A stretch of DNA of 64,000 nucleotides from Hydrolagus colliei (taxonomy: Eukaryota): NCBI GenBank assembly GCA_035084275.1, contig CM068749.1:17856001-17920000 (forward strand), written 5' to 3'. A program made the position numbers and the translations under genes. Below, one piece after another: positions 15,430 to 17,370 of the stretch; the stretch's first letter is position 1, and every line of letters begins with the position of its first letter. The notes under the pieces were generated by a model, which was not told the origin of the DNA, searched no databases, and saw nothing but the letters and a program-made list of their open reading frames with translations.

Positions 15430-17370
15430 TGTGGTAGGGCTAGTGCAGGAATAGGCCACGATGGGACCCGGTGTGGGGCTGCAGCAGGCGAGGATGGGCT
15501 CTGGTGTGGGTCAGTGGAAGGCGAGGATGGGCTCTGGTGTGGGTCAGTGGCAGGCGAGGATGGGCGTCGGCATGGGTCTGGAACAGGCGAGGATGGGACC
15601 TGGTATGGGGCAGCCGAGGATGGGACCTAATATTGGACTGGGGCAGGAGAGAATGGGACCTGGTCTGGATCAGCAGCCATGGAAGGGATCTGGTGTAGGG
15701 CCGGGGCAGGCGAGGATGGGATCTGGAGTGGGGCGAGAGCTGGGGAATAGGGGACGTTGTGTGGGGCCGGGGCAGCAGGAGATGGGACCCGGTAGGGGAT
15801 TGAGGCAGCAGGGAATGGGATCTGATATGGGACTGGGCCAGCAGGGGATGAGACCTGATATGAGACTGGGGCAGCAGGGGATGGGACTGGGGCGTGGGGG
15901 AATGGGAACGGGGAGGATGGGAACTGGTTTGGGGCAAGAGCAGGAGAGGGTGGGATCTGGTATTGGACTGGGACAGGCGAGGATGGGACCTGGAGTGGGG
16001 CTGGAGCAGGGGCGGATGGGAGCTGGTATGGGTCCGCGGCAGCAGGTAATGGGAGTTGGTATGGGGCAGGGGAGGATGGGATCTGTGGGGCAAGGGCCTG
16101 GGAGGATGGGATTTGATGTGGGGCCTGGACATCAAGGGATGGAACCTGGTGCAGGGCTAGGGCAGGGGAGAATGGGACCTGGTGCAGGGCTAGGGCAGGG
16201 GAGGATGGGACCTGATGCAGGGCTAGGGCAGGGGAGGATGGGACCTGGACTGGGATTAGGGCAGGGGAGGATGGGTCCTGGTGCGGGGCTTGGGCAGCAG
16301 GAGATGGGACCCAGTGCAAGCCTAGGGCAGGGGAGGATGGTTCCTGGTGCGGGTCTAGGGCAGCAGGGGTTGGGACCCAGTGCAGGGCTAGGGCAGGGGA
16401 GGATGGGACCTGATGTGGGGCTGGGGCAGGGGAGGATGGGTCCTGGTGTGGGGCCAGGGCAGCACCACATGAGACCAGGTGTGGGGCTAGGGCAGGGGAG
16501 GATGGGACCTGGTGCAGGGCTAGGGCAGGGGAGGATGGGACCTGGTGCTGGGCTAGGGCAGGGGAGGATGGGACCTGGTGCTGGGCTGGGGCTGGGGAGG
16601 ATGGAACCTTGTGTGGGGTTGGATCACCCACGGATGGGATGTGGTGTGGGGTTAGATCAGCCAAGAATGGGAGCTGGTGTTGGGCCAGGGTGGCAGGGAA
16701 TGGGACCTAATGTGGGGATGGGACATAGTATGGAGATGGGGCAAGGGAGAATGGGACTTAGTGTGGGGATGGGACCTGGTATTGGGATGGTGAAGCCAAG
16801 GATGGAACCTGGTGTGGGGATGGGTCAGGCAAGGATAGGACCTGGTGTGGGGCTGGGGCAGCAAGGGATGGGACCTGGTATTGGGATGGGGCAGCCAAGG
16901 ATGGAACCTGGTGTGGGGATGGGTCAGGCAAGGATAGGACCTGGTATGGGGCTGGGGCAGCAAGGAATGGGACCCGGTGTGAGGTTGGATCAGTCAAGGG
17001 TGGGACCTGGTGTGGGGCTAGGGCAGCCCAGGATAGCACCTGGTGTGGGGCTAGGGCAGCCCAGGATGGGATCTGGTATGGGGCTGGGGCAGCCCAGGAT
17101 GGGACCTGGTGTGGGGCTGGGGCAGCCCAGGATGGGACCTGGTATGGGGCTGGGGCAGCCCAGAATGGGACCTGGTGTGGGCCTGCATCCGCCCAGGATG
17201 GGACCTGGTATGGGGCTTATGCAGGGGCAGGTGAGGATGGGACCTTATGTGAGGATGGAGCAGGCGAGGATGCGACCTGGAATGGGGCTGGGGCAGGTGA
17301 GGATGGGACCAGGTGTGAGGCTGGGGCAGGCAAGGATGGACCTGATGTGAGGCTGGGGCAGGTGAGGATG
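15430..17370 (+). repeat. G-rich 33-bp degenerate minisatellite, roughly 55 units, consensus ~GGGCTRGGGCAGGGGAGGATGGGACCTGGTGYR
   Basis: Periodicity is directly visible and translates as 11-aa repeats GLGQGRMGPG(A/V/M). Confidence 0.93.
15461..17350 (+). CDS. Hypothetical 629-aa Gly/Met/Gln/Arg/Pro-rich tandem-repeat protein (coding status uncertain)
   Basis: Stop-free for 1890 nt across diverged units. Start context GCCACGATGG. Unit-length variants (9, 10, 12 aa) all keep the frame. Confidence 0.4.
   Translation: MGPGVGLQQARMGSGVGQWKARMGSGVGQWQARMGVGMGLEQARMGPGMGQPRMGPNIGLGQERMGPGLDQQPWKGSGVGPGQARMGSGVGRELGNRGRCVGPGQQEMGPGRGLRQQGMGSDMGLGQQGMRPDMRLGQQGMGLGRGGMGTGRMGTGLGQEQERVGSGIGLGQARMGPGVGLEQGRMGAGMGPRQQVMGVGMGQGRMGSVGQGPGRMGFDVGPGHQGMEPGAGLGQGRMGPGAGLGQGRMGPDAGLGQGRMGPGLGLGQGRMGPGAGLGQQEMGPSASLGQGRMVPGAGLGQQGLGPSAGLGQGRMGPDVGLGQGRMGPGVGPGQHHMRPGVGLGQGRMGPGAGLGQGRMGPGAGLGQGRMGPGAGLGLGRMEPCVGLDHPRMGCGVGLDQPRMGAGVGPGWQGMGPNVGMGHSMEMGQGRMGLSVGMGPGIGMVKPRMEPGVGMGQARIGPGVGLGQQGMGPGIGMGQPRMEPGVGMGQARIGPGMGLGQQGMGPGVRLDQSRVGPGVGLGQPRIAPGVGLGQPRMGSGMGLGQPRMGPGVGLGQPRMGPGMGLGQPRMGPGVGLHPPRMGPGMGLMQGQVRMGPYVRMEQARMRPGMGLGQVRMGPGVRLGQARMDLM

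Follow-up and report, generated by a model that had tools for sequence, protein, structure and literature searches.

A probable repeat protein encoded by a 33-bp tandem array within the presumed first intron of a Hydrolagus colliei LRRC8C-like gene

The window analysed here, a 64,000-nucleotide stretch of contig CM068749.1 of the Hydrolagus colliei assembly GCA_035084275.1, contains a 33-bp tandem array that is read through by a 629-codon open reading frame (ORF), and this raises the question of whether the array encodes a protein or is an intronic minisatellite whose frame happens to be open. An earlier note had put forward both interpretations, coding or neutral, and was partly supported by the present analysis. 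We consider that the array probably encodes a weakly constrained, lineage-restricted, basic and disordered repeat protein that was born from an intronic repeat. The main alternative, which we regard as possible though doubtful, is a non-coding, G-rich first-intron minisatellite that is either neutral or kept for its G-runs, as G-quadruplex or hnRNP H/F-type sites, and whose open frame is due to chance, the unit being built of triplets and small indels being purged by array turnover. The features of the locus are listed in Table 1.

Table 1. Positions of the features discussed, in window coordinates, together with the coding control array, which lies in a separate control stretch.
Feature	Position	Strand	Basis or properties
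LRRC8D-like coding exon, upstream	8071..10599	+	translation
Promoter-like stretch	15050..15350	+	GC 0.52, CpG observed/expected 0.68
Likely non-coding exon of LRRC8C-like gene	15272..15348	+	pyrimidine tract and AG ending 15271; consensus donor 15343; inferred from sequence
23-codon upstream ORF if donor 15343 is read through	15316..15387	+	sequence
In-frame TAG in decayed unit, just 5' of first ATG	15452..15454	+	unit alignment
33-bp tandem array	15453..17370	+	TRF: period 33, 58.3 copies, 72% matches
ORF of 11-aa Gly/Met/Gln/Pro/Arg/Leu repeats	15461..17350	+	62 kDa, pI 12.0, net charge ~+35
1-nt deletion in next-to-last unit, brings in stop at 17348	17338..17339	+	unit alignment
Donor-like site 11 bases past stop, possible spliced 3' end (putative)	17359..17367	+	sequence
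First coding exon of LRRC8C-like host	18361..18500	+	acceptor 18360, ATG 18363, donor 18501; Pfam Pannexin_like 1-46
Main coding exon of LRRC8C-like host	20906..23227	+	translation and protein match
ZNF326-like exon, downstream	35142..35870	+	translation matches ZNF326 part of P0123 by eye
C2H2 zinc-finger array, coding control	L065:604-1598	-	84-bp units

The list of open reading frames and the translation place the ORF on the + strand between the ATG at 15461 and the TGA at 17348-17350, and a cyclic alignment of the units divided it into 58 diverged units, so the long ORF of approximately 55 diverged 33-bp units described in the earlier note is real. A decayed unit extends the array back to approximately 15420. 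Stop codons in the six frames over 15461-17335 numbered 0, 28, 11, 14, 10 and 4. The + strand of the array is 49% G, with 161 runs of at least three G in 1,910 bases. Both ends of the ORF are formed by lesions in the repeat, as had been claimed, since the TAG at 15452 and the 1-nt deletion at approximately 17338 are each visible in the unit alignment. The TAG is probably kept in organism D, as no change to it is among the differences listed. The deletion is common to organisms A, B and D, where gap-free pieces span it (17187-17455 in X7, 17267-17467 in X13 and 17267-17470 in X14), and the pieces from B and D indicate that it is old. Past the deletion the old repeat frame stays open for approximately 60 more codons into non-repeat sequence (17338-17523), for which chance is a plausible explanation. 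The array is single-copy in its own genome (1.0 Gb): DNA and protein searches of that genome gave only weak matches outside it (best E 5.5e-9 and 9.8e-7), and those inspected were unrelated simple arrays. The near-optimal Kozak context of the start codon, which had been offered as evidence, is a property of the repeat unit, with 64 of the 72 in-frame ATGs having a purine at -3 and a G at +4, and it therefore gives no evidence for coding. Two of the bases ahead of the first ATG differ in organism D.

The array is likely to lie within the LRRC8C-like host gene's first intron, its start approximately 110 bases after the donor at 15343, given this donor and the good acceptor at 18360. The upstream coding exon is presumably of the D type, judging from its N-terminus, and the promoter-like stretch contains words that we take, reading the motifs by eye, to be YY1-, NRF1- and Sp1-like. 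Over residues 1-320 the main host exon has 88% identity with a protein of the great white shark (P0001), the cluster of which includes shark and ray orthologues. Candidate acceptors 5' of the ATG have a pyrimidine share of 0.32-0.55, compared with 0.68-0.77 for the host's own acceptors, which makes a cassette exon unlikely; the absence of an acceptor before the ATG is a point in favour of the minisatellite. The short upstream ORF is shifted in organism D by a 2-nt insertion and is thus not conserved. Two donor-like sites inside the ORF (17228 and 17294), which resemble the putative one past its stop, are altered in organism D. The in-ORF sites are in phase 0 whereas the host acceptor needs phase 1, and with the ORF stopping at 17350 no in-frame fusion of the repeat to the channel was found.

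Substitutions among the units were analysed on a tree of the 50 of 58 units that carry no indels, which gave 210 inferred changes; the 8 indel-bearing units were dropped because gapped units act as tree hubs. In the ORF frame 79 of the 210 events were synonymous, against a null of 60.9±6.1 (z 2.8, P 0.003). Stop-making steps in this frame numbered 1 against approximately 6.5-6.7 expected (P 0.005), a deficit that partly reflects how the ORF was picked, and the sole such step belonged to a pair of changes that hit the same codon. None of the five other frames had either a synonymous excess or a stop deficit, and since both are confined to the ORF frame the tests favour weak coding constraint, with a rough dN/dS among units of 0.7. 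The synonymous excess persisted (z 2.3-3.3) when the null was matched for CpG, for the left or the right neighbour or for the trinucleotide; the deficit of stops shrank to z -1.5 with right-neighbour matching and to z -1.35 with trinucleotide matching. Within-array changes fell 68/57/85 at the three codon positions. The C2H2 zinc-finger array, used as a positive control (11 units, none of them gapped, and 89 events), gave a synonymous P of 0.058 and a stop P of 0.036, indicating that the substitution test is of modest power.

As G-runs could be kept for reasons other than coding, their effect on these figures bears directly on the minisatellite. Fourfold G columns were more variable than non-degenerate G columns (P 0.003), a point on the coding side. 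With the keeping of G-runs allowed for, the synonymous z dropped (1.6-3.0 across 10 trees), most synonymous sites being G-run edges, and the removal of part of the excess speaks for a non-coding array. The stop deficit under the same control stood at z -2.3 to -2.6, which the keeping of G-runs leaves unexplained, and the loss of both edges of a G-run was not significantly avoided (P 0.73 and 0.28); these two results count against it. The earlier description of the substitutions as often synonymous and conservative therefore survives in its first half, as a modest bias that the G-run control weakens. No conservative bias was found among the non-synonymous changes, the mean BLOSUM62 score being -0.79 versus a null of -0.72 (P 0.73). 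The comparison of dN/dS among units that the same note had proposed leaned weakly to the coding side, and less so once G-runs were controlled.

Neutral arrays were simulated from the majority unit with duplication, conversion and context-dependent mutation, indels being excluded (2,727 runs). At least one of the six frames was open in 561 runs (21%), which suits the minisatellite. A sense-strand frame was open in 46 of these 561, and in 24 the open frame was accompanied by a synonymous z of at least 2.8, which does not. A separate simulation of the ORF frame gave similar numbers, and an open frame and codon bias occurred together in 0 of 1,705 runs. The caution that a stop-free frame might be expected by chance thus applies to an open frame alone, which is common under neutrality, and not to a sense-strand open frame with such codon bias, which is rare.

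All eight indels within the ORF (-6, -3, +3, -6, -3, -15, -15 and +6 in the unit alignment) are multiples of 3, as the repeat length changes had been said to be. The indel rate of neutral DNA was taken from 36 pairs of interspersed repeats in the window (38 pairs minus two coding pairs), which had 181 indels per 1,235 substitutions, or 0.147 each, with 24 of the 181 being multiples of 3. This rate predicts 9-27 frameshifts in the array, where 1 was seen, at the array end. The internal six-letter matches of the array lie mostly at lags that are multiples of 3 (73 of 91), suggesting that slippage itself favours such lengths, and given this share the eight of eight has a P of approximately 0.17. 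In a non-coding 20-bp satellite used as a control, two sets of 499 units had 1 and 0 indels respectively, although 57-58 types of variant occurred in them. Both observations are as the minisatellite would have them and leave less weight on the indel argument, so the claim of length changes by multiples of 3 is correct as a description and weaker as evidence, and the deficit of frameshifts against the neutral rate has to be seen beside a non-coding satellite that is also poor in indels. This satellite is G-rich and fills both 10-kb stretches L070 and L071 (G000:C31:9600001-9630000); its 998 units show 17% mismatch and a single indel, and the unit holds a telomere-like hexamer.

Against purging by turnover, a small non-coding array (L087:3392-4401) took two small indels in the approximately 7 units of its diverged edge. 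This 11-bp-based array changes in length by whole subunits, with small indels in the diverged edge only. In 800 kb of control sequence (80 stretches, some of them picked for G-rich matches or as chromosome ends), no non-coding array matched the one studied here in length, divergence and complexity, and the closest array in the 800 kb was the coding zinc-finger array.

Eight of 17 listed sequencing runs were compared, with contigs that span part of the array. In organisms B and D the array is at the same place as in the reference. Organism B had 18 differences and no gaps over four listed pieces at the array, and one run (X11) gave a single 36-base piece. Another run, X17, which may be RNA, hardly covered the array and could not be used. 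The upstream flank of organism D is approximately 12% diverged (16 differences in 128 bases), and in its piece 15302-15562 all 17 gap letters lie 5' of the ATG (+2, +11 and +4). Within the array of organism D, 10 of 10 offsets checked over approximately 1,036 letters were multiples of 3, where approximately 7 frameshifts would be expected on this branch at the interspersed-repeat rate. No stop-making change was found among the differences listed for the parts of the array covered by the contigs of the relatives. The 33 listed in-ORF differences between species were spread 9/11/13 over the codon positions (P 0.70), a flat distribution that fits both neutrality and the weak within-array bias. 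At 15461-15531 organism D has 9 listed differences in 7 codons, each with its amino acid changed, and this 5' array edge (9 of 71 bases) is as diverged as the upstream flank, as expected of a minisatellite. Over the parts covered, the frame is thus kept in a related species, as had been suggested for checking, without a bias among codon positions in the listed differences. At 16691-16693 the ORF has a Trp codon, in place of the Gln of organism B and of the majority unit; the two codons are separated by two changes, and one order of these would pass through a stop.

The predicted product has 207 Gly, 72 Met, 64 Gln, 59 Pro, 56 Arg and 3 Lys among its 629 residues, with 27 PGxG (11 of them PGVG), 31 RMG and 5 PGM motifs. 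No Pfam domain was found in it at E<=0.1. Neither two word-based searches nor a comparison with 1.84 billion sequences, all of them representatives of clusters, turned up a related protein, and this too favours the minisatellite. Among these searches, the one over proteins of 345-1101 aa gave no match at E<=0.001 and the one over proteins of 30-344 aa gave 3 chance matches; the search power was such that 60-aa fragments at 12% divergence would score E below 1e-13. The one search that covered proteins longer than 1,101 aa gave 133 matches, the top ones of which, when inspected, were unrelated 11-residue repeats. The best score in an Atlas search was 0.85, with low recognition, and scanning metagenome contigs for the pattern yielded 0 matches. 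AlphaFold2, run on the single sequence without an alignment, gave a pLDDT of 32, which is consistent with the disordered product that had been suggested and is otherwise uninformative.

The RMG repeats had been called reminiscent of hnRNP M, and elastin-like or silk-like behaviour had been proposed. hnRNP M and MYEF2 have three RRM domains, and hnRNP M has Met/Gly/Arg repeats and PGM-type motifs, while elastin has a signal peptide, Lys/Ala cross-link domains and VPGxG polymers. The product shares PGxG, RMG and PGM motifs with elastin-like VPGxG polymers and the hnRNP M repeats, and its composition is typical of disordered self-associating chains. Unlike hnRNP M it has no RRM or other Pfam domain, and unlike elastin it has no secretion signal or Lys/Ala cross-link blocks, the ORF as read from the sequence beginning directly with the repeat; no homology to either was found. 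With the defining domains absent, it belongs to neither family and the resemblance is one of motif only. No locus of the hnRNP M kind was seen in the own-genome searches, whose weak matches were unrelated simple arrays where inspected. Involucrin and loricrin are single-exon repeat proteins, fast-evolving, Gly/Gln-rich and intracellular, in which the coding region is one in-frame array. The ORF has a similar one-array, fast-evolving, Gly/Gln-rich design with a presumably intracellular product, but no sequence match was found, and there is no epidermal gene cluster and no separate acceptor after the non-coding first exon.

Literature searches on LRRC8 in chimaeras and cartilaginous fish, on LRRC8 with ZNF326 and on holocephalan glycine-rich repeats brought up nothing on this locus, and the main text of PMC12952989 has 0 mentions of LRRC8 or ZNF326. 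Two known systems, as presented in the accessible portions of their sources, are de novo ORFs lengthened by tandem repeats: the human orf143 in VPS9D1-AS1 (PMC12888051) and the gadid antifreeze glycoprotein (PMC6410882, PMC5850335). The locus resembles both in having a frame that is mostly a tandem array in non-coding DNA, in growth by unit duplication and in the lack of an older homologue. For both of those systems there is translation or protein evidence, whereas the present array is known from its sequence; it also differs in being on the sense strand of a channel gene, probably within intron 1, in consisting of 11-aa units that are diverged and number 58, and in lacking a start that resembles a signal peptide. 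G-rich elements of intron 1 have been described for 100-nt windows, going by the part of PMC2275096 available. The minisatellite may fit these elements, with its many G-runs on a G-rich non-template strand a short distance inside the likely first intron, though it begins approximately 110 bases after the consensus donor and the exon itself is inferred. A 1.9-kb phased 33-bp array is far above such windows in length, and stop avoidance is not predicted by such elements.

If the array is coding, as we think probable, the mRNA could come from the CpG promoter of the host gene and read through the donor at 15343 past the short upstream ORF, or could start within the intron, as there is no credible acceptor before the ATG. 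The transcript might end at a poly(A) word at 17617 or 17770, or be spliced from the donor-like site past the stop. Selection would then bear on the openness of the frame and on the composition as a whole, and not on individual residues, in line with the rough dN/dS, and the array would change in length through duplication and loss of units. The product would stay in the cell, given that it has no hydrophobic N-terminal stretch, and its composition, by analogy with the behaviour of elastin-like and Arg/Gly/Met-rich chains, predicts a condensate-forming polymer that would bind nucleic acid and associate with itself. It is conceivable, as a tentative extension that we would rate as rather unlikely, that an intronic minisatellite of a chimaera LRRC8 gene has been captured as a 62-kDa, pI 12, elastin-like condensate protein, one splice choice at the first donor switching between a membrane channel and a phase-separating polymer.

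A further explanation is that the array is an exon or gene that once coded and is now in decay, with the coding signal as its relic: before the deletion at 17338, splicing from a weak donor at approximately 17378 would have put the repeat in frame with the LRRC8C-like start. The phase of this donor fits acceptor 18360 in the unshifted frame, and the recent changes between species have no codon-position bias. Yet the deletion is common to A, B and D and the frame has stayed intact through approximately 12% flank divergence since. The LRRC8 N-terminus lines the pore and poorly tolerates extensions; shark P0001 starts at the same Met as the host protein and has no repeat extension, and a repeat fusion is present in none of the 15 listed members of the 46-member cluster. 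We consider this explanation improbable. An assembly artefact or collapsed repeat is most improbable of all, for although short-read contigs break within the array, the units are too diverged to collapse and a run from another sample and study (X5) matched four pieces (15005-15515, 15521-16214, 16558-16823 and 17114-17539) with 0 differences and 0 gaps, so the array is not an artefact of assembly.

If translated, the array would encode an unannotated 629-aa vertebrate orphan protein derived from an intronic repeat, old enough to be shared by diverged relatives and exceeding in both length and age the majority of de novo ORFs described, and it would show that gene callers overlook long repeat proteins lying within first introns. 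Should it not be translated, the locus clearly cautions that a coding signal can be mimicked by the keeping of G-runs and the turnover of arrays.

The host gene itself (18363-23227) is a distinct LRRC8C-like paralogue that has LRRC8D on one side and ZNF326 on the other; a cluster of shark and ray proteins stands at approximately 88%, and another LRRC8C-like group at 54-58%. Its N-terminal style recurs in a protein of a salamander (P0020), and from these sequence comparisons the paralogue may represent an unnamed LRRC8 subfamily. A database protein of 1,429 aa (P0123) fuses the LRRC8C-like gene to ZNF326; this is likely an artefact of gene calling, and through it two families are merged in one cluster. 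Just upstream of the promoter-like region, at 14630-14945, a repeat-derived stretch that is 74% like 18861-18968 is flanked by one long run of G and one of C, approximately 280 bases apart, which could pair as a stem.
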